A stretch of DNA of 64,000 bases from Candidatus Zambryskiibacteriota bacterium (GCA_016180955.1 JACPAD010000001.1:8527-72526); one strand, 5' to 3'. Shown: positions 3,315-59,144, numbered from the stretch's first letter. Notes: generated from the sequence alone by a model not told the origin. Translations and numbers: made by a program.

Positions 3315-3468
3315 ATTAATATTCCGCAAAAAGTGCCACTTTTGTCACTTTTTGGTAGACTCATCAATATGGCTTATGGAAACTCAACCTATCACAAATA
3401 AATATATAGGTCACTCTGGTGTGGAGTATATCTTCGAGTACTTTGACACTAAATTCGCATCTCCTATC

Positions 3469-3496
3469 ATTCTCTAATTCTCACGAATTAGAGAAT
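3469..3496. promoter_or_regulatory. Perfect 12-bp inverted repeat (ATTCTCTAATTC-TCAC-GAATTAGAGAAT), candidate ArsR operator over the arsR promoter
   Basis: Read directly. It ends 2 nt before the TGaTAGAAT extended -10 of the arsR-family gene. Confidence 0.5.
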
Positions 3497-3497
3497 G

Positions 3498-3512: not shown

Positions 3513-3779
3513 ATGAAAGAAAAGGAACTGGAGCGGATACTGAAAGCATTAGCAAATAAAAGAAGATTGGCGATAATTTCCTTCCTGCGAAAAAAGAAGG
3601 AAGCAAATGTAGGCGACATTGCTGAAGTTATTCGCTTGTCAATTAAGTCCACGTCGCGTCATTTGACCATTTTGTTCGGCGCAGATCTTCTTGACAGAGA
3701 ACAGAGAAATACGGAAGTATTCTATAGTTTAACGTCCTCTTTACCAGAATTGTTTTTACCATTGATAAAAAGTCTATAA
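3513..3779 (+). CDS. ArsR/SmtB-family winged-HTH transcriptional regulator (no metal-binding Cys motif seen)
   Basis: 88 aa. ALANKRRLAIISFL...ANVGDIAEVIRLSIKSTSRHLTILFGADLLDREQRNTEVFYSL fits the ArsR HTH core. Confidence 0.8.
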   Translation: MKEKELERILKALANKRRLAIISFLRKKKEANVGDIAEVIRLSIKSTSRHLTILFGADLLDREQRNTEVFYSLTSSLPELFLPLIKSL

Positions 3780-8339: not shown

Positions 8340-10142
8340 ATGTGCGGAATAGCTGGAATAACCAATAAAGAGCTAGTTTCTCAAAAGCTGATTGAGAAGA
8401 TGACACGCACCCTCTCTCATCGCGGGCCGGATGATGACGGCTTTTTTGTGGACGACTCTGTTGCCCTCGGGATGCGCCGGTTAGCCATTATTGACCTAGT
8501 AAAGGGGGACCAGCCCATAAGCTCCACAGATGGCCGTTATCTCATATTTTTCAACGGGGAGATATACAATTACAAAGAGATTAAGAAAGAATTAGCTGGA
8601 TATGATTTCAAAACTGACAGCGATACAGAAGTAATTCTCGCAGGGTATCTTAAATGGGGTGGAGAAGTACTTACGCGTCTGCGGGGAATGTTTGCCTTTG
8701 CTATTTATGATACTCAAGAGAAAAAAGTTTTTATTGCCCGCGACCCCTTTGGCATCAAACCTCTTTATTACTGGAAGAGGGGAGAAAAGATTATGGCGTT
8801 TTCTTCAGAGATAAAGAGTTTTATCGAACTTCCGGAATTTGAAACGGAGGTGAATGATGCCGCGGTCTACAACTATCTCTCGTATCAATACAATCCGCTG
8901 AAAGAAACATTTTTCAAAAATGTTTTTAAACTGCCGCCGGCTCATTACTTAACGATTGACCTTAAGACAGGGGAGTGGGAAGAGAAAAGATATTGGCAAT
9001 TCAAATTTACTCAAAACAATTCACTCCTTGAGGAAGAAACTAAGAAGGAAATTCTAAAGACCATGGAAGATTCTGTGGCGCATCATATGATCGCTGATGT
9101 GCCTGTGGGCTCGTTTCTCTCTGGTGGTATAGACTCTTCAATCATTGCTACTCTTATGCAAAAGATTCGCGGGGAAAAGAAAATAAAAACTTTTACTGTA
9201 GGATTTGAATCTCTGTCAGAAGGAGTAGAGGCAAGAGAAACTTCCGAACCGCTCGGCACTGACCATACCGAAATTACCGTGGGCAGAGATGAATACTTCG
9301 AAGCTCTAAAGAAAGCCATCTGGCACTTTGATGAGCCAGTAGCAGACCCTTCGGCCATAGGTTTGTATTTCTTGGCCAGAGAAGCCAGAAAGTCTGTAAC
9401 TGTAGTGCTATCTGGTGAAGGCTCTGATGAGCTTTTTGGGGGCTATAACATTTACCTTGAGCCATTTGCTAGGCGCTATCTGGCCTGGGCACCGCATATG
9501 GTCTTGAAATTCTTAGCATCTCTGCCTTTGCGTGGCAGTAACTATGCCGAACGTGCTCTTTCAAAGCTAGAAGATTGGTATATTGGCAATGCTTCGATCT
9601 TCAAGCCCTCAGAAATAAAAAATCTCTGGCTTGGGCAGTCTATGTCAAGGGCCGTCCTTGACACGTTGTATCAAGAAGCAAGCAGTCTTAGTGATTCGGC
9701 TAAGATGCAATATATAGATATAAATACTTGGCTGGTAGGGGATATTCTGGCTAAAGCGGATAAGATGACCATGGCGCATTCACTCGAGTTACGCGTGCCC
9801 TTTCTTGATCCCGCTGTGGCGGGACTTGCAGAAATTCTGCCGGATAGATTCAAGTGGCACTCTGGGACGACCAAGTATCTCCTGCGCGAAGCCTTCAAAT
9901 CGGTTCTACCCGAGTCAACCCGCAAGAGGAAGAAGCTCGGCTTCCCGACACCTATTCACAACTGGATTGAAACGGAAGATGTAAAAAATACAATTTTCCA
10001 AAACAAATATATTAAATCCCATTTCAATCTTAATGTAGTTGAAAAGCTTTTCGAAAATTCAAGAGAAAATTCACGGAAAATTTATCTCCTCTTAATGCTT
10101 GCGCTTTGGTATAATGTCTTTATCACGAATAACCGCGAATGA
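8340..10142 (+). CDS. asnB: Asparagine synthase (glutamine-hydrolysing)
   Basis: MCGIAG N-terminal nucleophile, SGGIDSS PP-loop, 600 aa. Confidence 0.9.
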   Translation: MCGIAGITNKELVSQKLIEKMTRTLSHRGPDDDGFFVDDSVALGMRRLAIIDLVKGDQPISSTDGRYLIFFNGEIYNYKEIKKELAGYDFKTDSDTEVILAGYLKWGGEVLTRLRGMFAFAIYDTQEKKVFIARDPFGIKPLYYWKRGEKIMAFSSEIKSFIELPEFETEVNDAAVYNYLSYQYNPLKETFFKNVFKLPPAHYLTIDLKTGEWEEKRYWQFKFTQNNSLLEEETKKEILKTMEDSVAHHMIADVPVGSFLSGGIDSSIIATLMQKIRGEKKIKTFTVGFESLSEGVEARETSEPLGTDHTEITVGRDEYFEALKKAIWHFDEPVADPSAIGLYFLAREARKSVTVVLSGEGSDELFGGYNIYLEPFARRYLAWAPHMVLKFLASLPLRGSNYAERALSKLEDWYIGNASIFKPSEIKNLWLGQSMSRAVLDTLYQEASSLSDSAKMQYIDINTWLVGDILAKADKMTMAHSLELRVPFLDPAVAGLAEILPDRFKWHSGTTKYLLREAFKSVLPESTRKRKKLGFPTPIHNWIETEDVKNTIFQNKYIKSHFNLNVVEKLFENSRENSRKIYLLLMLALWYNVFITNNRE

Positions 10143-10198
10143 GATCGAATGTTGCGAATAAGCCCATTCGTATCATTCGATTAAATTCGTAAAATTCG
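10136..10198. promoter_or_regulatory. Phased pentamer array: CGAAT x3 then ATTCG x4 at 9-10 bp spacing, containing the TCGTATCATTCGAT box and the mraY -10
   Basis: CGAAT at 10136, 10146, 10155. ATTCG at 10166, 10175, 10185, 10194. TAAAAT 10190-10195. ATG 10203. Confidence 0.5.
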
Positions 10199-10202
10199 TA
10201 TC

Positions 10203-11249
10203 ATGGATATTCTAAAGATTATCGTCCCGACGGTGCTAACCTTCTCCTTTGGTATATTCATCACCCCTTTTTTTACTCGCTATTTCTACAAATACAAGAT
10301 GTGGAAGAAGTCTCCTCGCATCGAGGCGGACACTTCAGAAGCTTTCAATAAAATCCATAATACGGAAGAGGAGGTCTCAACACCACGCGTCGGCGGGGTC
10401 ATTATCTGGATAGCAGTGCTTCTCACCGTGGCTGTCATTTATTTTCTTTCTAAACTTTTTCCGGTCTATCAGATGGAACAGCTCAACTTCTTCAGCAGAA
10501 GCCAGACAGTTGTACCCTTGGGAGCCTTCTTCTTCGCCGCCGCGGTGGGGTTTGTCGACGACCTTTTCCACATCTTCGGTACGGGAAGTTATGCTAAGGA
10601 TGCTCTGGTCTATCGTAAAGTCAAAATCATATTTGTTACCCTCATTGGGCTTGCCATCGGCTTCTGGTTTTACTACAAGCTGGATTTTGTCGGCGTCCAT
10701 ATTCCTTTCAACGGTATGTGGCAGATGGGGCTGTGGTTTATCCCGTTCTTCGTTATAGTGATGCTTGCCACTTTCTCGACCTCGGTCATTGATGGACTCG
10801 ACGGCTTGGCTGGGGGAGTATTGGCCTCATGCTTTACTGCCTTTGCCGTTATTGCCTATCTTGGCAGTCAGTTTGATATCTCGGCTCTCTCCGGCGCGAT
10901 TGCCGGAGGAATCCTCGCCTTCCTCTGGTTTAATGTGCCACCAGCCCGCTTCTATATGGGGGAAACCGGCATGTTGTCCTTGTGCGTGGTGCTTGCGGTG
11001 ATTGCGTTTCTCACCGACTCCGTGCTTCTTCTGCCGGTAATCGCCTTTCCGCTTGTGGCTACTACCGCTTCGGATATTATTCAAATAACTTCTTATAAGT
11101 TTTTTAACAAACGTAGAGTATTTTTGGTAGCGCCGCTCCATCTCCACTTCCGCGCGCTCGGCTGGCCGCGCGAGAAGGTGGTCATGCGCTACTGGATTGT
11201 CTCCGTCATTTCTGCCATTACCGGCGTCATCCTTTATCTGGTAAGTTAA
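10203..11249 (+). CDS. mraY: Phospho-N-acetylmuramoyl-pentapeptide transferase
   Basis: Polytopic membrane protein with VIDGLDGLAGG and APLHLHF motifs. Confidence 0.85.
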   Translation: MDILKIIVPTVLTFSFGIFITPFFTRYFYKYKMWKKSPRIEADTSEAFNKIHNTEEEVSTPRVGGVIIWIAVLLTVAVIYFLSKLFPVYQMEQLNFFSRSQTVVPLGAFFFAAAVGFVDDLFHIFGTGSYAKDALVYRKVKIIFVTLIGLAIGFWFYYKLDFVGVHIPFNGMWQMGLWFIPFFVIVMLATFSTSVIDGLDGLAGGVLASCFTAFAVIAYLGSQFDISALSGAIAGGILAFLWFNVPPARFYMGETGMLSLCVVLAVIAFLTDSVLLLPVIAFPLVATTASDIIQITSYKFFNKRRVFLVAPLHLHFRALGWPREKVVMRYWIVSVISAITGVILYLVS

Positions 11250-13461: not shown

Positions 13462-14603
13462 GAATCCTATTTACTGGTGGCGGCACGGGCGGACACTTCT
13501 ACCCGGTAATTTCTATTGCCGAAGAACTAAACACGCTTGCTAAAGAAAAGAAACTTCTTGAACTCGAACTTTTCTATATGTCGCCTTCTTCCTATAACGA
13601 AGGGATACTCTACGAGCACGGCATTACTTATAAGAAAAACAGCGCTGGTAAGCTCCGTCATTCCGCCAGCTGGCGGATTCTCCTGCCTAACTTCTTCGAC
13701 CTCTTCAAAACATTTTTTGGGGCGATAGTTTCCATTGTTGAGATTTACCGGCTTTACCCGGATGTTATTTTTGGCAAGGGGGGCTATGCCTCTTTCCCGG
13801 CGCTTCTGGCCGCAAGAGTTTTGCATATCCCAGTCGTAATACACGAATCAGACACGGTACCCGGACGGGTTAATCTCTGGGCTGGTAAATTTGCGCAAAG
13901 AATTGCGCTCTCTTATCGAGAAGCGGCGCAATATTTTCCGGCGGAGAAAACTGCTTATACCGGCCAGCCGGTGCGCAAGGAAATCGCTACGCCAACTAGA
14001 GCCGGCGCGCGAGAGTTCTTGAAGATCGAAGAAAATATTCCGGTAGTGCTAATCCTTGGCGGTTCGCAGGGAGCGCAACGCATAAACGAAACCATCTTCG
14101 AAGGACTTAAGCGGCTGACAGAGAAGTATGTCATCATTCATCAGACTGGTTCGAATAATATCATCGAGGCCAAAGCCACGGCGGAAGCTATCCTCAATGA
14201 CTCTCCGCACAAAGCTCGATACAAGCCGTATGATTATTTGAATGCTCTAGCCCTGCGCATGGCATCTGGAATAACTTCTGTAGTAGTCTCGCGCGCCGGC
14301 TCAACCATATTTGAGATAGCGGCGTGGAGAGTGCCTTCCATTATTATTCCCATAGATGAACGGATCAGTCACGACCAGCGAAGTAACGCCTTCGCTTATG
14401 CCAGAGCCGGCGGCTGCGTAGTGGTAGAGGAGAAAAATCTTATGCCCAATATTTTGATTTCCGAGATTGATAGACTGGTTACTGATCAATCGGTTGCTGG
14501 AAAAATGCGGGAAGCGGCCAAAGTGTTTTACAAACCGGATGCCGCTCGGCTCATCGCCGAAGAGATATTGAAGATAGCGTTGGGGCATGAAATAGAAAAA
14601 TAG
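13458..14603 (+). CDS. murG: UDP-N-acetylglucosamine--N-acetylmuramyl-(pentapeptide) pyrophosphoryl-undecaprenol GlcNAc transferase
   Basis: GGGTGGHFYP N-terminus. 4-nt overlap with ftsW. Confidence 0.9.
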   Translation: MRILFTGGGTGGHFYPVISIAEELNTLAKEKKLLELELFYMSPSSYNEGILYEHGITYKKNSAGKLRHSASWRILLPNFFDLFKTFFGAIVSIVEIYRLYPDVIFGKGGYASFPALLAARVLHIPVVIHESDTVPGRVNLWAGKFAQRIALSYREAAQYFPAEKTAYTGQPVRKEIATPTRAGAREFLKIEENIPVVLILGGSQGAQRINETIFEGLKRLTEKYVIIHQTGSNNIIEAKATAEAILNDSPHKARYKPYDYLNALALRMASGITSVVVSRAGSTIFEIAAWRVPSIIIPIDERISHDQRSNAFAYARAGGCVVVEEKNLMPNILISEIDRLVTDQSVAGKMREAAKVFYKPDAARLIAEEILKIALGHEIEK

Positions 14604-14621
14604 ATTCAAGATTTAAGATTT

Positions 14622-22719: not shown

Positions 22720-22844
22720 ATTATACTTTTTACTAGCGGTCGCAAGTATTTTCTACTTTTTTTGAAATTAGAAATTAAAACAAAAACATTTGAGTGTCAA
22801 ACAAGTTCTCCCCAACTTAAACACTACTTTCTACCCATTTCTAG

Positions 22845-22878
22845 ACTCGTATCATTCGATCAAATTCGCTATAATTCG
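22845..22878 (+). promoter_or_regulatory. TCGTATCATTCGAT box plus phased ATTCG repeats and TATAAT upstream of dnaB
   Basis: Box 22847-22860. (A)CTCG/ATTCG at 22845, 22854, 22864, 22874. TATAAT 22870-22875. ATG 22883. Confidence 0.45.
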
Positions 22879-22882
22879 TGGC

Positions 22883-24307
22883 ATGGAAATTACCGGTCAG
22901 AACCCCATCACTAACGCGGGGCTGCGCATCCCGCCCCACTCGCTCGAGGCGGAGATGGCGCTCCTTGGCTCTATCATGCTTCGTCCGGATGCGATTTATG
23001 AAATTATTGATATCGTAACTCCCTTATCTTTTTATTTCGAAAAGCATCGCACTGTATATGAAGCAATGCTCGAGCTCTTCGGTAAGCATCAGCCGATAGA
23101 TATTCTATCGCTCTCCACACGGTTGAAAGAAAAAGATTTTCTCGAACATATAGGCGGTACCACTTTCCTCACTGAACTTTCCTCTGTTGTACCCTCTTCC
23201 GCCAATGTCAAGCACTATGCCGAGATTGTAATGAAAAAATATATGATGCGCCAGCTTATCGAGGCTTCCGAGTATCTATCGCACTTAGGCTTCAACGAAG
23301 CGGGCGAACTCGAAGAGATTCTCGACCAAGCGGAGAAGAAAGTCTTCGACATCACCGAACACTTCGCTGGTTCTGCACGTTTCCGAGAACTTATGCCGCT
23401 TCTCCACGACGCCTTCGAGCGCTTCGAGAGGCTCTCCAGTGCTGAACACGAATTGCGCGGTGTACGGACAGGATTCAAGTCACTTGATGATATCCTCGGC
23501 GGTTTCCAGAATTCCGACCTCATCATCATCGCCGCGCGTCCTTCGGTCGGTAAGACGGCTCTGGCTCTCGACATCGCCCGTCGCACAGCAAGCGAGCATC
23601 AGACTCCCGTCGGCATCTTCTCTCTTGAGATGAGCGCGGACCAGCTGGTGGACAGGATTGTTGCCGCCCAGAGCCGCACTGACGCCTCGATCATCAGGAA
23701 AGGCGTGCGCACCCAGAGCGGCACTTGGCGTGAGGATATCTTCAAGAATATCCGCGACGCTCTTGATGATCTCTCGCGTACGCCCATCTACATTGACGAC
23801 CAGCCCGGTAATTCCATCATGAAGATGCGTTCTGCCGCGCGTAAGCTCAAGATCGAGAAAAGTCTCAAGCTTCTTATCGTTGATTATCTCCAGCTTATGG
23901 CGCCCTCGACTGCTCGTACCAACGACTCGATGGTCCAGCAAGTGACCGAAATTTCACGCGGGTTGAAGCACTTGGCCCGTGAGCTCAACATCCCCGTCAT
24001 TGCTCTCTCCCAGCTCTCGCGTGCCATCGAGACCCGCGGTGGCAAGCCTAAACTCTCCGACCTTCGCGACTCGGGCTCCATCGAGCAGGATGCAGACCTG
24101 GTGATGTTCATCCACTCCAATGAGGACGATATCCGAGACGAGTCCGGCAAGGTCAAGGACGTCCAGCGCAAAGAGCTCATCATCGCCAAGCATAGGAACG
24201 GCCCGTTGGGTCAGGCGGTGCTCGACTATCACACCCGCTTCAATACCTTCGTTGAAATAGACTACTCCAACTACGGCAAGATTGAGGAAGATTTCAAGAA
24301 TTTCTGA
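22883..24307 (+). CDS. dnaB: Replicative DNA helicase DnaB
   Basis: PHSLEAEMALLGSIM N-terminal motif, Walker A ARPSVGKTALAL, RecA-like C-terminal half. Start moved from the TTG at 22790 to ATG 22883. Confidence 0.9.
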   Translation: MEITGQNPITNAGLRIPPHSLEAEMALLGSIMLRPDAIYEIIDIVTPLSFYFEKHRTVYEAMLELFGKHQPIDILSLSTRLKEKDFLEHIGGTTFLTELSSVVPSSANVKHYAEIVMKKYMMRQLIEASEYLSHLGFNEAGELEEILDQAEKKVFDITEHFAGSARFRELMPLLHDAFERFERLSSAEHELRGVRTGFKSLDDILGGFQNSDLIIIAARPSVGKTALALDIARRTASEHQTPVGIFSLEMSADQLVDRIVAAQSRTDASIIRKGVRTQSGTWREDIFKNIRDALDDLSRTPIYIDDQPGNSIMKMRSAARKLKIEKSLKLLIVDYLQLMAPSTARTNDSMVQQVTEISRGLKHLARELNIPVIALSQLSRAIETRGGKPKLSDLRDSGSIEQDADLVMFIHSNEDDIRDESGKVKDVQRKELIIAKHRNGPLGQAVLDYHTRFNTFVEIDYSNYGKIEEDFKNF

Positions 24308-35483: not shown

Positions 35484-36280
35484 ATTTTCTTAATAATTCT
35501 TAGTTTGGCATTGCGTGAGCGGGGGTTTCTCTTAACCTCTTCGGCGCTTGGGACAATAGGTTTTCTTTTCTCCCCTTTTTCTCTAAAGAAGTTCTTCACT
35601 ATCCGGTCTTCAAGGCTATGGAATGAAATTACCACCAGTCGTCCGCCAGGATTCAATATTTCCCATGCTTTCGATAATCCGACCTCTAATGCTGTCAGTT
35701 CGTCATTGACGGCAATGCGCAAAGCTTGGAAAACTTTTGTTGCCGGATGAATGCGGCCCTTTCTGTCTCCAACCACTTCAACCAGATCAAAGGTGGTCTC
35801 AAAAGGCTTAATTTCCCTTCGCCTTACAATCTCTCTGGCAATCTTTTTCGAGAACTTCTCTTCTCCGAAGCCGCGCAAGATGAGCTCAATGGCATGCTCA
35901 TCGAAGGAGTTTAAAATATCGGCTGCGGTAATGCCCTTGCCAGACATTCTCATGTCGAGCGGCTCGTCTTTCTGGAAGGAAAATCCTCTTCCCGCCCCGT
36001 CAGACGGGGCAAGTTGATCGCTCGAGATGCCGAGGTCGAAGAGAATGGCGTCTGGCCTCACATCTGCCAGAAGTTTGTCCAAGTCTTGGAAGTTGCCGGT
36101 AATATCGGCACCAGTTAGAGGATCTTGATCAATAGTGACGACTTTTACCTTCGGAAATTGTCTCAAGATTTCCTTACTGTGCCCGCCAGAGCCATATGTA
36201 GCATCTACGAACACTTCACCGTTCTTCAGATCCAAGCTCTCCACTACCTCGTGTAAAAGAACAGATTTATGTTTAGGCAT
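35480..36280 (-). CDS. rsmH: 16S rRNA (cytosine1402-N4)-methyltransferase
   Basis: HKSVLLHEVV and DATYGSGGHS motifs. Start moved to ATG 36280 (MPKHKSVLL). Confidence 0.9.
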   Translation of the reverse strand: MPKHKSVLLHEVVESLDLKNGEVFVDATYGSGGHSKEILRQFPKVKVVTIDQDPLTGADITGNFQDLDKLLADVRPDAILFDLGISSDQLAPSDGAGRGFSFQKDEPLDMRMSGKGITAADILNSFDEHAIELILRGFGEEKFSKKIAREIVRRREIKPFETTFDLVEVVGDRKGRIHPATKVFQALRIAVNDELTALEVGLSKAWEILNPGGRLVVISFHSLEDRIVKNFFREKGEKRKPIVPSAEEVKRNPRSRNAKLRIIKKI

Positions 36281-36668
36281 ATTCCGATTCGAGTTTTCTC
36301 CTGTAGCTAGCCCATTTCTTGTCATTCCAGATTTCCACTCGGTCATGGACGCCGGTGATGACAATGGGATTCTTCAAGTCTGCGAATTCCCGCAAGAATT
36401 CCGGAATGAGAATCCTGCCTATGGAGTCAATCTCGATTTCAGATGCACCCGCGAAAGTGAACCGCGCGAAGCGATGGTCAGTTTCTACGTGCCCGAGCTT
36501 CTTAACCTCTTCCGAGATCTGAAGCCAGGTCCTGTGGGGGTAGAGAAAAAGACAATGATCTTTGCCTCGAGTAACAACAACTTTTCTGCCGAGAGCTTTT
36601 CGGAATTTGGCAGGCAAAGAGAAACGATTCTTCTCGTCAACGATATGTGTGTACTCGCCGATAAACAT
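36273..36668 (-). CDS. mraZ: Transcriptional regulator MraZ
   Basis: MFIGEYTHIVDEKNRFSLPAKFR and a second SpoVT-AbrB repeat. Confidence 0.9.
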   Translation of the reverse strand: MFIGEYTHIVDEKNRFSLPAKFRKALGRKVVVTRGKDHCLFLYPHRTWLQISEEVKKLGHVETDHRFARFTFAGASEIEIDSIGRILIPEFLREFADLKNPIVITGVHDRVEIWNDKKWASYRRKLESEYA

Positions 36669-36682
36669 TGTGTTTTCATGAT

Positions 36683-36718
36683 ACCACTATTTCCCACTCA
36701 CATACTATTCTATCCCAC
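36683..36718 (-). promoter_or_regulatory. Candidate MraZ boxes: GTGGG / GTGGG / GTGGT repeats upstream of mraZ
   Basis: Minus-strand GTGGG at 36718-36714 and 36697-36693; GTGGT at 36687-36683 (spacing 21 and 10 nt). TATCAT -10 follows. Confidence 0.45.
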
Positions 36719-36815
36719 CTAGCTCCATCTTACTAGGCGAAAAAGCCACTTTTCCCTTCTTCTGTGGATAACTAAATATTAGATTCCCTCTATTATTAGA
36801 GCAAATTAAAAACTA

Positions 36816-42295: not shown

Positions 42296-42420
42296 AAGCT
42301 CCGCAAATATAGCCCAGAAAACCGCGCTATCATTTCTTGCTAGAAATGCACGCTCCACTCGCACCGTCGCGCTCCATGACGCTTTTCTGCCCTACATTTG
42401 CTCCGCTACGTTTTAATACA

Positions 42421-42455
42421 AAAAGAAACGCCGGCGCAGGATAGGTCCGCGCCGG
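42421..42455 (-). terminator. GC-rich hairpin plus U-tract after the 57-aa ORF
   Basis: CCGGCGC (42431-42437) pairs with GCGCCGG (42449-42455). Plus-strand AAAAGAAA at 42421-42428. Confidence 0.65.
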
Positions 42456-42467
42456 ACGTTGTGAGAG

Positions 42468-42641
42468 TTAGTTGTGAGATGTGATGAGTTTTCGGCACAT
42501 CCGCTTCAGCCACCACCAGGTCGGAATGCCGAAGACAATCATCATATAGACTGCCAACGGCCAGTAGCCCAAGTTGTCTGCGGAATGGGCAAGTTGTTCT
42601 GGAGAAAGGGGTGGTGGCAAACTGCCAATTGCAGAGATCAT
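42468..42641 (-). CDS. Hypothetical 57-aa membrane protein (GC-rich micro-island)
   Basis: Own translation MISAIGSLPPPLSPEQLAHSADNLGYWPLAVYMMIVFGIPTWWWLKRMCRKLITSHN. GGAGG SD (42650-42646). TTGACA-17-TATCGT promoter (42686-42658). Confidence 0.5.
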   Translation of the reverse strand: MISAIGSLPPPLSPEQLAHSADNLGYWPLAVYMMIVFGIPTWWWLKRMCRKLITSHN

Positions 42642-42694
42642 ATAGCCTCCTGTATTTACGATAAACTAGATTTATGATATTGTCAACACGCTTT

Positions 42695-42727
42695 ATTCGT
42701 ATCATTCGATATAATTCGTAAGATTCT
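42695..42727 (+). promoter_or_regulatory. TCGTATCATTCGAT box plus phased ATTCG repeats upstream of the thioredoxin-like gene
   Basis: Box 42697-42710. ATTCG at 42695, 42704, 42714 and ATTCT at 42723. TATAAT 42710-42715 or TAAGAT 42719-42724. ATG 42729. Confidence 0.45.
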
Positions 42728-42728
42728 T

Positions 42729-43397
42729 ATGGTTGATTCGAAGAAATATCTAGTGGCTTTTATTATTACCGCACTCATCTTTGGCACGGCTGTTTTGGCA
42801 AGCTCACTCTTGACCAATAAAAAGGTCAAAGACGTACGTGCTATTGAAAATAGAGTGGCTCTTGACATCCTTTCCTCCGAAACCCAATTTGCTCTCTTGG
42901 CCGAGACTTCCTGCCGCGACATCGGGCCCGGATTTTTATCTAAAGAATTAGGACCTCTAGGCGAAAAGCTCTCTTATGCCGAGAACTCGACTGGCTTTAA
43001 TACCGAAGATGTTGAATCCCTTAAGCGCTCATACTTTCTCCTTGAAATCAAAGATTATCTTCTGATGAAGCGCCTGACAGAGAAATGTAATATCAAACCG
43101 ACCTTTATCCTCTACTTCTATTCGACTGAAGATAAATGCGAGGATTGTGAACGCATGGGTTACGTCCTTACTGCGCTCCGCGACAAATATCCGGACCTGC
43201 GCGTTTACTCTTTCGATTATCACTATGACCTCGGCGCCATCCAGACTCTTACTTCTATCTATAAGGTCAAGTTCGAGTTGCCCGCACTCATCATAAATGG
43301 TGCACCGTATTATGGTTTCAAATCAGTCGAGGAGTTGGAAACCTCAATCCCAGCTCTAAGCTCACGACAAGCTGCTACCTCGACCCCAAACAGATAA
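42729..43397 (+). CDS. Membrane-anchored thioredoxin-fold-like protein (CEDC motif)
   Basis: N-terminal TM helix. FILYFYSTEDKCEDCERMGYVL resembles a thioredoxin CxxC context. Confidence 0.5.
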   Translation: MVDSKKYLVAFIITALIFGTAVLASSLLTNKKVKDVRAIENRVALDILSSETQFALLAETSCRDIGPGFLSKELGPLGEKLSYAENSTGFNTEDVESLKRSYFLLEIKDYLLMKRLTEKCNIKPTFILYFYSTEDKCEDCERMGYVLTALRDKYPDLRVYSFDYHYDLGAIQTLTSIYKVKFELPALIINGAPYYGFKSVEELETSIPALSSRQAATSTPNR

Positions 43398-48374: not shown

Positions 48375-48382
48375 CTAAATTT

Positions 48383-48474
48383 CTAATTAACCTAATTGCT
48401 CTAATTACTCTAATTACTCTAAACAAATCCCAATTTAGAATAATTAGGAATTAGAATAATTAGGTTAATTGCTC
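48383..48474. repeat. AT-rich tandem 9-mers (CTAATTnCT x4-5) forming the left arm of a roughly 40-bp imperfect inverted repeat
   Basis: Left arm 48383-48423, right arm 48433-48474 (extends into the rplY 3' end), spacer aaatccc. Confidence 0.5.
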
Positions 48475-57047: not shown

Positions 57048-58028
57048 TTAAATGTACAAACCCAGTTTAATAACGTGGTCCACCAGTGTATGAGTATATC
57101 CCATTTCATTATCGTACCATGAGTAGACGGCGCAAAGGTCCTTACCAGTAACGTGGGTTAAGGAAAGGTCAGCAACGGCGGCGTAAGGATTACCTATTAT
57201 GTCGGTAGATACTATTTGGTCGCGCGTGGTAGTGAGTATCCCATGCCAGCGCGGCTCCTTTGCCGCATTCTCAAGGATGGAGTTGATTTCATCAGGCGTA
57301 GTTTCTCTCTCCGAAACGAAGCAGATTGCCGAGAGCGAGCCAGTCGAGACGGGCACTCTCATGGCCACGCCGTCGAATTTGCCTAAAAGCTCGTGGACGG
57401 CGCGCCCGACAGCGATAGCTGCGCCCGTAGTCGAGGGCACGATATTGATGGCCGCGGCGCGACCGCGGCGATAATCCTCTCCTTTCGCTGGAGAATCTAC
57501 TAGAGATTGGGTGGCGGTATAGCCGTGAACAGTATTAAGAAAAGCTTTTTTGATGCCAAGCTTTTCGGAAAGTATTTGCATTATCGGAGAGGCAGAGTTG
57601 GTGGTGCAGGAGCCATTCGAGGTAATGACGCAAGCCTTTAAATCTTCTTCATTTACCCCCATCAGTACGGTCTTGCTGTCGGCCGTGTCATCATCTTTAG
57701 CTGGAGCGGTTATCACCACTCGCTTGGCGCCTGCTTGTATATGAGCTCGAGCTTTATTAAAACTTTCGAATGCGCCGGAAGATTCAACAACGATATCTAC
57801 TCCCAATTCTTTCCACGGAAGTTTGCTCGGGTCTTTTTCAGAGAGGAATTTGGCATCGAATTTGCCGCCCCAATTCCCGTAGATACTGTCGTATTTCAAA
57901 AGATATTCCAAATTTTCCAAATTGCCCAAATCGTTGACGGCAACGATTTGGAGCTCTGGCTTCTCTTTTGCTAACTTATAGAATGCCCTGCCTATCCGGC
58001 CGAATCCATTTATCGCAACGCGAGTCAT
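57048..58028 (-). CDS. gap: Glyceraldehyde-3-phosphate dehydrogenase
   Basis: INGFGRIGR and the active site SNGSCTTNS. Confidence 0.95.
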   Translation of the reverse strand: MTRVAINGFGRIGRAFYKLAKEKPELQIVAVNDLGNLENLEYLLKYDSIYGNWGGKFDAKFLSEKDPSKLPWKELGVDIVVESSGAFESFNKARAHIQAGAKRVVITAPAKDDDTADSKTVLMGVNEEDLKACVITSNGSCTTNSASPIMQILSEKLGIKKAFLNTVHGYTATQSLVDSPAKGEDYRRGRAAAINIVPSTTGAAIAVGRAVHELLGKFDGVAMRVPVSTGSLSAICFVSERETTPDEINSILENAAKEPRWHGILTTTRDQIVSTDIIGNPYAAVADLSLTHVTGKDLCAVYSWYDNEMGYTHTLVDHVIKLGLYI

Positions 58029-59053
58029 CCTTTGAATTGTAGCATGTCCTGCGTGATTTTCTTCTCTTCGTCGGTGTGGGCGCGGACGTCTACTTCATAA
58101 CTAGTGTTCTGACTCTCGAAAAAATTGACTAACTCGTAAACGTCGGTGGCGGTGCCCATCCACTTGGCCGGGTTGGTGGCGCCGTAATGCTTCGGAAGAC
58201 CGAGTTCCTCGAGGCGTCTGTCAGTGACGTATTGCACGTATTGATTGACGTACTCGGCGTTGAGACCCAAAATACCGTTCGGGAAAAGGTCTTTGTTGTA
58301 AGCGGTCTCAAGATTGACGCCCTCAATAATTAGATCCTTAATTTCCTTGGCAAATTCTTCCGTCAGAAGTTCGCTGTTCTCTTCGAGAATGGTGTGGACA
58401 AGATTAATGCCGAACTTAAGGTGGAGAGATTCGTCGCGGATGACCCAGTTAATCATCGAGCCGAAGTTCCGCAAGATATTTCTCTGGCGGAAAGAGAGCG
58501 CCACCATGAAGCCGGAGTAGAACCAGATGCCTTCCATCACAATATTAGTGGCGATTAAATTTCTGATGAAGTCCTTCTGGCCCTCTGAAGTGGAGATGTC
58601 AAGAGTGTCTTCTGTCATGCGCTTCATATACTTGTTGATGTAGCGCTCCTTGGCCTGCATCGATGGGATCTCGATATGAATGTTGAAAATTTTATCGCGC
58701 TCGAAGAACGGGAAAGTTTCGAGCACGTACTCGAAAGCCACACAATGATTAGCCTCCTCCCACATTTGCTTGGCGAGATAAAGATGGCACTCGGGACTTT
58801 TAAGATAAGGGTAAATGCCGAGGGCGATGGAGCGGTTAACGATAAGCTCCGCCGGATTAAAGAAAGCCATGAGGAATTTAACCGCATGTTGCTCGTCGTC
58901 CGTCATCTTCTCCCAATCCTGAATGTCTTCCTTGAGCGCTATTTCGTGCGGGAACCAAGTGTTCCTTACAGCCTGATTATAGAGGTCATACGCCCATTGG
59001 TAGCGCAAAGGGTGAAGATTGGTATCGTCAGGTGATGGTTTACCTATAAGCAT
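58025..59053 (-). CDS. nrdB: Ribonucleotide reductase class I beta subunit
   Basis: Di-iron ligand motifs EEANHCVAFEY and RDESLHLKFG. Confidence 0.9.
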   Translation of the reverse strand: MLIGKPSPDDTNLHPLRYQWAYDLYNQAVRNTWFPHEIALKEDIQDWEKMTDDEQHAVKFLMAFFNPAELIVNRSIALGIYPYLKSPECHLYLAKQMWEEANHCVAFEYVLETFPFFERDKIFNIHIEIPSMQAKERYINKYMKRMTEDTLDISTSEGQKDFIRNLIATNIVMEGIWFYSGFMVALSFRQRNILRNFGSMINWVIRDESLHLKFGINLVHTILEENSELLTEEFAKEIKDLIIEGVNLETAYNKDLFPNGILGLNAEYVNQYVQYVTDRRLEELGLPKHYGATNPAKWMGTATDVYELVNFFESQNTSYEVDVRAHTDEEKKITQDMLQFKG

Positions 59054-59144
59054 TGGTTTAAATTTTCAATTTAGAATTTATAATTTTTATTAAATTTTCA
59101 ATTCATTAATTTTAAATTTTAAATTGAAAATTCTAAATTCCATT
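59054..59144. repeat. AT-rich nrdA-nrdB spacer with permuted inverted repeats
   Basis: AATTTTCAATT x2 and its complement AATTGAAAATT. AATTTAGAATT and its complement AATTCTAAATT. Confidence 0.4.

Follow-up and report, generated by a model that had tools for sequence, protein, structure and literature searches.

What are the phased ATTCG repeats that lie between an asparagine synthase (asnB-like) gene and mraY in a 64-kb stretch of DNA from Candidatus Zambryskiibacteriota bacterium, and do they regulate the gene in front of which they stand? The whole stretch of 64,000 nucleotides is referred to here as the window. The initial annotation described the repeats as part of the mraY promoter, and proposed that they are either a binding array for an oligomeric regulator or a dedicated -35/UP-type element linking cell-wall, replication, and redox genes. 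We find that the repeats belong to a four-unit module that recurs in many phyla, and that widely separated inverted pairs of this module enclose a gene of the GxxExxY family. With modest confidence, we interpret the array before mraY as the terminal array of a small cassette organized around the GxxExxY nuclease, here without the gene and co-opted as a portable promoter.

A mirror array and two solo arms

The repeats between asnB and mraY form a 4+4 mirror around position 10162. The left arm (10126–10159, minus strand) consists of four ATTCG units spaced 9-10-10 from the centre outward, which read as CGAAT on the plus strand at positions 10126, 10136, 10146, and 10155. The right arm (10166–10198, plus strand) contains four ATTCG units at positions 10166, 10175, 10185, and 10194, with a spacing of 9-10-9. 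The arms face outward and are separated by the 6-bp central gap AAGCCC (10160–10165), which is the “empty” form of the pair. The initial annotation located seven pentamers correctly but missed the CGAAT at 10126, and its count of 3+4 becomes 4+4. The 3′ end of the asnB-like gene (8340–10142, plus strand) enters the left arm, the outer end of which overlaps the stop codon (10140–10142); the arm encodes the final five residues of AsnB (TNNRE) and the stop codon. On the other side, the ATG of mraY (Glycos_transf_4; 10203–11249, plus strand) is positioned 4 nt past the end of the right arm. The mraY product is 100% identical to a protein from a metagenome-assembled genome (MAG) of Candidatus Zambryskibacteria (Parcubacteria, candidate phyla radiation (CPR)). 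The right arm includes the -10-like hexamer TAAAAT (10190–10195, plus strand), which is formed by the third spacer and the AT of the fourth unit, and is located 7 nt before the mraY ATG in a leaderless geometry. The overlap of the array with a plausible -10 box, as originally described, thus holds, and the same leaderless distance is found at dnaB.

Two solo arms are present elsewhere in the window. The arm before dnaB (22845–22878, plus strand) comprises ACTCG followed by three ATTCG units (22854, 22864, and 22874) with a spacing of 9-10-10, and contains TATAAT (22870–22875). The start of the replicative helicase gene dnaB (22883–24307, plus strand) has to be corrected to the ATG at 22883, which is 7 nt after the TATAAT. 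The second solo arm (42695–42727, plus strand) has three ATTCG units (42695, 42704, and 42714) and a terminal ATTCT with a spacing of 9-10-9, and contains both TATAAT (42710–42715) and TAAGAT (42719–42724), which are 13 and 4 nt before the ATG, respectively. The downstream gene (42729–43397, plus strand) encodes a CxxC membrane protein with a CEDC motif and an N-terminal membrane segment; the label “thioredoxin-like” given to it previously is not borne out by any match in Pfam or NCBIfam.

The ends of the arms precede the ATGs by 4 nt at mraY, 4 nt at dnaB, and 1 nt at the 42729 gene. The three plus-strand arms are ~88% identical to one another, with the similarity extending beyond the pentamers, and the arm of the 42729 gene shares 30 of 34 positions with the mraY right arm. 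The 14-mer TCGTATCATTCGAT, which covers units 1 and 2 plus the spacer in the mraY right arm (10168–10181, plus strand), recurs exactly at 22847 and 42697, all on the plus strand, where ~5e-4 copies are expected in 64 kb when both strands are counted. Both its recurrence and its distance of 8–9 nt from each -10 box were reported correctly by the initial annotation: the measured distances are 8 nt to TAAAAT, 9 nt to TATAAT, and 8 nt to TAAGAT. The proposed one-face phasing is only approximate. The mean spacing is 9.3–9.7 bp, and from this geometry the first and last pentamers of an arm would be ~90–120° apart; the array is not strictly one-faced because spacings of 9-10-9 or 9-10-10 are shorter than a turn of B-DNA.

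Exactly four four-unit arrays are present in the window when up to three mismatches are tolerated in the 20 pentamer positions. Both arms of the mraY pair have no mismatches, and the dnaB and 42729 arms have one each. No further such array was found anywhere in the 64-kb window or in the short overlapping contigs that extend it. Markov simulations (n = 20) produced no array in 19 cases and one array in the remaining case. Exact triple arrays are confined to these loci, and at least one appeared in 5 of 200 simulations. Phased arrays of other pentamers exist as ordinary tandem repeats, which could favour chance or a simple functionless repeat as the origin of the arrays. However, this explanation is effectively refuted by the presence of four arrays in the window versus ~0.03–0.05 expected, the threefold exact occurrence of the 14-mer, the fixed four-unit size of the module, and the conservation of pentamers where synonymous sites are near saturation, the last two of which are described below.

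A divergent open reading frame (ORF) of 78 aa (42409–42642, minus strand) begins ~55 bp away from the 42695 arm, on its inner side; it is preceded by a good Shine-Dalgarno sequence (AGGAGG) and matches no family. A TTGACA is located at ~42680 on the minus strand, also near this arm.

The four-unit module and the GxxExxY gene

A scan of GTDB, using one genome per species and the pattern ATTCG-N4-ATTCG-N5-ATTCG-N4/5-ATTCG, matched at least 120 loci compared to ~2 expected for uniform composition. The phyla among the matches listed include Bacteroidota, Planctomycetota, Verrucomicrobiota, Chloroflexota, Desulfobacterota, Cloacimonadota, Acidobacteriota, Elusimicrobiota, Spirochaetota, Calditrichota, Patescibacteria, Saccharibacteria, and others. 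In the IMG/VR viral contigs, 41 loci were found, compared to 4 and 15 for two permuted pentamers. The size of the module is fixed: 127 of the 147 arrays sampled have exactly four units, and their spacing is 9-10-9 in 82 and 9-10-10 in 34. The unit consensus is (A)ATTCG(T)(G), whereas the spacers have only a loose consensus of TGWA, TTWTM, and TGTA, and spacers 1 and 3 are the same in just 16 of 92 arrays. In orthologous loci (L133/L157, L109/L143/L188, and L150/L187), the pentamers are kept and the spacers diverge. In most genomes with arrays, only the pentamers are shared between copies.

The genes adjacent to the arrays are unrelated (hcp, nuoM, rfbA, aroQ, def, uvrA, recN, atpD, cysS, purM, and others), and a conserved regulon across phyla is ruled out by the lack of relationship among the downstream genes. 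Arrays are located at the 3′ ends of genes as well as at the 5′ ends. The outer (3′) side of an arm faces either a gene start at 3–55 nt or a convergent gene end at 0–7 nt, and the inner side is followed by longer gaps, terminator hairpins, or a partner arm. Pairs are predominantly outward-facing (55, versus 6 inward-facing), and the gaps of the outward pairs fall into two classes, one of -2 to 93 bp (31 pairs, including the window pair with its 6-bp gap) and the other of 366–555 bp. The window copies share the spacing, the outward pair with a short gap, and the abutment to gene boundaries, with the dnaB and 42729 copies being solo arms.

Four-unit arrays in phage contigs (L201–L241, for example L208, L219, L227, L234, L203, and L228) adjoin start codons, which are found on either side of the array. 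The Anaerolineae MAG JBDOIF01 (L098, L100, L106, L107, and L171) contains at least five copies of a ~185-bp element resembling miniature inverted-repeat transposable elements (MITEs). The element is delimited by terminal inverted repeats of its own (GTATTTCARTTTSGGGGCGAG), with a mirror ATTCG array at the centre, and its copies end ~25–35 bp upstream of TGnTATAAT -10 boxes.

The mirror symmetry of the pairs raises the alternative that the element acts at the RNA level, in the manner of repetitive extragenic palindromic (REP) sequences: the inverted arms would form a long interrupted hairpin in the asnB–mraY transcript and serve as a stabiliser, a processing site, or a translation mask. The segment 10120–10205 folds with an energy of -31.2 kcal/mol (z = -6.9), the hairpin ends 6 nt before the AUG, and pairs are found between co-directional genes right after stop codons. 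The complementarity of mirrored spacers is slightly higher than that of shuffled partners (0.537 vs 0.447 ± 0.031), but it is weak and due to a few recent palindromes. Furthermore, the hairpin requires both arms, and only a single arm is present at two of the three loci in the window and in the majority of arrays elsewhere; the arrays of phage contigs adjoin start codons in both orientations. No Rfam match was obtained for 15 array loci at the gathering score or for window positions 10000–10300 at E ≤ 1. The hairpin lacks a T-run and hence is no intrinsic terminator; a terminator was also rejected because there are 0 terminator-like sites in 9900–10400 and the hairpin is followed by the AUG without U's. 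We regard a function in RNA as improbable.

Every pair with a gap of 366–555 bp encloses a GxxExxY gene (PF13366/TIGR04256, PD-(D/E)XK, ~130 aa) or its pseudogene, and the layout in the sense of the gene is [CGAAT]n–gene–[ATTCG]n. Among the neighbours on the inner side of arms, PF13366 ranks first of all families (6 of 107), and it does not occur among those on the outer side. Array-flanked cassettes occur in at least four phyla: Chloroflexota, Desulfobacterota, Calditrichota, and Bacteroidota. As a reciprocal check, 11 GxxExxY loci were retrieved by protein; each of them has a CGAAT array upstream and an ATTCG array downstream of the gene, and all 11 sit at junctions within rfb operons. Among metagenome variants that encode one identical protein, the number of units in the upstream array ranges from 3 to >10.

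In Flavobacterium metagenome contigs (L242–L250), L150, and L252, the array that precedes the GxxExxY gene is built of the 10-mer CGAATTRAAR and is a variable-number tandem repeat. The upstream rfbB ORF ends within the first unit of the array (with the residues YAN before the stop codon), as asnB does in the window.

The putative catalytic D…ExK residues are invariant in the alignment of GxxExxY proteins. The AlphaFold model of the protein is of moderate quality (predicted local distance difference test score of 69.5), and its best fold matches, to Cas4 SSO0001, the AddAB nuclease, and lambda-exonuclease-like proteins, are weak, all above E = 0.001; the predicted fold weakly resembles those of Cas4/RecB-type nucleases. 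A sequence search of the PDB with GxxExxY returned no match. In PMC3424549, the family is given as one of unknown function that has been transferred between divisions multiple times, and the literature searched mentions GxxExxY only in passing. No array sequences, ATTCG/CGAAT repeats, or arrays flanking GxxExxY genes were found in the literature, in a search that was thin on subscription journals. The module is absent from the literature searched and is undescribed there, the related kinds being MITE/REP-like repeats and selfish nuclease cassettes.

We propose that the four-pentamer arm would be the terminal protein-binding array of a GxxExxY nuclease cassette. In full-length copies, the inverted pair would bracket the GxxExxY gene, whereas the mraY copy would be a gene-less pair, and the dnaB and 42729 copies would be single arms. 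Both gene-less pairs and solo arms may be derivatives of the full cassette. The pentamers would most likely be bound by a protein arranged head-to-tail on four sites, either as a tetramer or as two dimers, for which the GxxExxY nuclease is the obvious candidate. The cassette probably spreads as a selfish, mobile unit.

Several observations weigh against this interpretation. The profile hidden Markov model of GxxExxY finds no member of the family in the window or in ~1 Mb of Parcubacteria loci from relatives (L001–L080), and it is possible that the window arrays are relics or are served by another protein. A GxxExxY gene is adjacent to only ~8–10% of the arrays sampled, and none lies nearby in the phage contigs that carry arrays. 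The reach of the reciprocal check is restricted by the close relationship of the 11 proteins, which come exclusively from Flavobacteriia/Bacteroidota and from the same rfb operon. The GxxExxY gene could instead target pre-existing arrays. The identity of the 14-mer at three loci could be the product of selection on the spacer, by a lineage-specific binder or through -35-like use, and not of recent copying. Finally, the excess in GTDB is measured against uniform composition, and the permuted-pentamer controls come from viral contigs only.

Possible promoter role and conservation in relatives

Among 50 gene starts of the window, a TAnnnT hexamer is present 5–9 nt upstream at 15, and a Shine-Dalgarno-like motif at only 5; the mRNAs of the host are mostly leaderless. 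The arms before mraY and dnaB are each plausibly a core promoter because the spacer and the AT of the next ATTCG unit form TAAAAT or TATAAT 7 nt before the ATG. No TTGACA-like -35 element is present 16–18 bp upstream of the -10 box of the arm, and a promoter scan reports none at the arm. The -35 position of the arm reads TCGTAT, where dnaB of relatives has TTGCnA. The arms resemble leaderless sigma-70-type promoters in having a TAnnnT hexamer 6–8 nt before the start codon, as at mraY and dnaB, but differ from them in that they lack a -35 element and that the -10 box lies inside a repeat module conserved for other reasons. According to our interpretation, the leaderless host would have co-opted the arms: the spacers, which are free to vary, supply TAAAAT or TATAAT at a distance of 7 nt from the start codon, so that an arm may double as a portable core promoter.

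Upstream of the mirror array, the extended -10 sequence TGGTATAAT (10107–10115, plus strand) is located within the 3′ end of asnB and encoded by the conserved LWYN motif at the AsnB C-terminus. Its counterpart TGGTAYAAT is kept in most of the 80 relatives described below. The sequence is a probable older or alternative mraY promoter, internal and embedded in the coding sequence, and a transcript starting there would bear the whole mirror element as a 5′ hairpin.

The conservation of the arrays was assessed in 80 metagenomic mraY loci (L001–L080), which together provide ~1 Mb of related Parcubacteria sequence with crude ORF calls. The array at mraY is kept in a single one of the 80 loci (L031), in which the layout of the left arm is the same as in the window. 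All eight pentamers are in place in L031, with 40 of 40 pentamer bases identical to those in the window compared to 15 of 27 alignable spacer bases (Fisher p = 3e-6), and only 40% of the third codon positions of mraY are identical between the two. The distribution is patchy: neither the window nor L031 shares the array with its closest MraY relatives. Strings near-identical to TCGTATCATTCGAT are found in L041 (ATTCGTATCATTCGATCAT) and L031 (ATTCGTAACATTCGATCAA). Additional arrays in the ~1 Mb of relatives are situated before murG (L022), before dnaJ (L068), and in a convergent intergenic region beside a terminator hairpin (L041).

None of the three orthologous dnaB loci (L044, L049, and L050) has an array. 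Each has a conserved upstream block followed by a sigma-70-type promoter of 35–37 nt with the structure TTGCnA-17-TAnnAT-6-ATG, and the 38-nt arm of the window takes exactly the place of this promoter. Judged from these sequences, the arm replaced the ancestral -35/-10 promoter at dnaB. The conserved non-coding block occupies positions 22803–22843 of the window and reads GTTCTCCCCA(A/G)(C/T)TTA(A/C)ACAC...TTTC(T/C)AG; it is common to L044, L049, and L050, the DnaB proteins of which are ~77–88% identical.

These results bear directly on the possibility that the arrays are the operator of a host transcription factor, in which an oligomeric Zambryskibacterium regulator would co-regulate mraY, dnaB, and the CxxC membrane protein gene, most likely by repression. 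In agreement with such an operator, the arrays of the window are found only at three start codons in 64 kb, where they overlap -10 boxes, and the three arms have spacers as well as pentamers in common. L031 conserves pentamers over spacers, and the four-site head-to-tail layout is typical of oligomeric DNA binders, such as MraZ, OmpR/PhoB-type regulators, and omega/ParG-type repressors. However, the initial annotation had itself held that a regulatory box should be present before orthologous genes in close relatives, and the box is missing upstream of mraY in 79 of 80 loci and of dnaB in all three, which goes largely against a regulator. The arrays that relatives do have precede murG or dnaJ or lie in a convergent region beside a terminator hairpin; the left arm of the window is directed into the 3′ end of asnB; in other phyla, unrelated genes and the 3′ ends of genes are found next to the module; and the regulators encoded in the window have different operators, namely the GTGG boxes of MraZ and the palindrome of an ArsR-type protein. 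Because the array is not conserved at mraY and dnaB orthologues and yet occurs at other genes in relatives, the comparison of these loci indicates that the pattern is that of a dispersed element and not of a conserved regulon. The operator explanation is disfavoured by the non-conservation and by the behaviour of the module elsewhere, and we consider it unlikely. What stands from the earlier proposal is that the sites are short, non-random, and phased, that they switch orientation, and that they are of a type bound by oligomeric proteins; a dedicated operator is unsupported, as is an operator or -35/UP element linking cell-wall, replication, and redox genes, given the presence of the module in many phyla beside unrelated genes.

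Alternatively, the array could be a promoter class in its own right, with RNA polymerase or an alternative sigma factor of this lineage recognising the ATTCG (or TAnnAT-TCG) units themselves; it would then be one of several promoters built from repeats. The units can be read as a -10-like hexamer plus TCG (TATCAT, TTAAAT, and TAAAAT at mraY; TATCAT, TCAAAT, and TATAAT at dnaB), the arm replaces a canonical promoter at dnaB, and other genes of the genome and its relatives have different 7–9-bp tandem repeats right before the ATG. Nevertheless, L031 has all of the pentamers without a -10-like hexamer before the mraY ATG, and there is no -35-like element at 16–18 bp. The last spacers in other phyla are TGTA or TGAA instead of TAnn, many arrays face gene 3′ ends, and promoters of Bacteroidota follow another consensus. 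A direct reading of the units by the transcription machinery is a doubtful explanation.

The short tandem repeats found right before start codons are TTAGAGTAA 9-mers in 4–5 copies, AGATTYA 7-mers, and an AAATT-rich string. In the window they are located at ~48375–48425 (minus strand), ~14600–14621, and ~59054–59120 (minus strand), and in relatives upstream of mraY in L004, L006, L008, L015, L018, L026, L034, L041, and L048. The AAATT-rich string GAAAATTCTAAATTGAAAATT recurs before mraY of many relatives and before the window gene 58025–59053. These repeats may constitute a second class of repeat-built promoter in the lineage.

More tentatively than for the window array itself, we suggest that four-unit ATTCG arrays and the GxxExxY PD-(D/E)XK gene could form an unrecognised family of minimal selfish cassettes across many phyla. 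Such cassettes would insert at gene junctions of operons, leave gene-less pairs or single arms behind, and have been domesticated in CPR bacteria as portable leaderless promoters able to overwrite native ones. The GxxExxY family is very large and widely transferred, and a defined DNA partner of four ATTCG units spaced 9-10-9 provides a handle for binding and cleavage assays and for following its spread. Promoters and regulation in CPR bacteria are almost uncharted, and the window offers a concrete case of a repeat module that would supply a leaderless -10 box and displace an ancestral promoter. The case is also a warning for annotation, as a motif common to a few promoters of one genome can be a dispersed element and not a regulon.

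Comparison with known repeats and operators

The module resembles MITE and REP elements, such as the Correia elements of Neisseria and the REP sequences and bacterial interspersed mosaic elements of enterobacteria, in being a small extragenic palindromic unit between genes, often right after stop codons. It is likewise patchy in relatives and multi-copy in some genomes, as in the Anaerolineae MAG with its at least five copies of the 185-bp element. Correia elements can donate outward promoters. In contrast to these repeats, the ATTCG module conserves only phased 5-bp units without a contiguous inverted repeat, has a fixed four-unit architecture, and is associated with the PD-(D/E)XK gene GxxExxY rather than a DDE transposase or a REP-associated tyrosine transposase. 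No target-site duplication was seen at the asnB/mraY or dnaB junctions.

Free-standing homing-endonuclease-like genes and the intervening sequences of 23S rRNA share with the cassette a very small ORF of nuclease fold or unknown function, inverted flanks, and a location inside host transcription units, here rfb operon junctions, without an obvious promoter or terminator of their own. The flanks of the ATTCG cassette differ in being phased pentamer arrays of 3 to >10 units. Furthermore, gene-less ATTCG pairs and solo arms far outnumber the filled ones.

Ribbon-helix-helix proteins and response regulators bind cooperatively, head-to-tail, to short direct repeats. Their arrays (omega heptads, ParG boxes, and the sites of TorR/PhoB and Spo0A) are similar to the ATTCG arrays in the use of short direct repeats, orientation switches between sub-arrays, and promoter overlap. 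The core CGAA of the Spo0A 0A box, TGNCGAA, resembles CGAAT. However, the ATTCG period is 9–10 bp versus 7 or 11 bp in those arrays, no such regulator is linked to ATTCG arrays, and their spread over many phyla beside unrelated genes is unlike a regulon. Among other sites considered and rejected, LexA CGAAC boxes, ARG boxes (TGAAT/ATTCA), Spo0A 0A boxes, DnaA boxes, and an H-NS nucleation site do not fit the direct-repeat 9-10-9 layout.

MraZ operators consist of phased GTGG(G) direct repeats upstream of the division and cell wall (dcw) cluster and are bound by an oligomeric protein. They resemble the mraY array in having three or four short direct repeats with ~10-bp phasing beside a cell-division or cell-wall gene, but the array repeats ATTCG, not GTGGG, and is found also at dnaB and elsewhere. 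MraZ was rejected as the binder because the mraZ gene of the window (36273–36668) carries its own canonical phased GTGG boxes upstream. This MraZ-type operator (36683–36749, minus strand) comprises GTGGC (36749–36745), GTGGG (36718–36714), GTGGG (36697–36693), and GTGGT (36687–36683) with spacings of 31, 21, and 10 bp. The dcw cluster is split in the window, with mraY on the plus strand at 10.2 kb and mraZ, rsmH, an ftsL-like gene, and a penicillin-binding protein gene on the minus strand at 36.7–33.3 kb. Upstream of the mraZ promoter region there is also a perfect match to the DnaA box, TTATCCACA (36763–36771, minus strand), which may be due to chance.

The ArsR-type regulator encoded in the window was also rejected as a binder, as it has a palindromic operator of its own, and just a 3-mismatch resemblance to the 14-mer is present upstream of its gene. 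This ArsR/SmtB-type helix-turn-helix gene (3513–3779) is preceded by the palindrome CATTCTCTAATTC-TCAC-GAATTAGAGAATG at ~3467–3497, just 5′ of a TAGAAT -10 box, and the palindrome is probably the operator of the gene itself.

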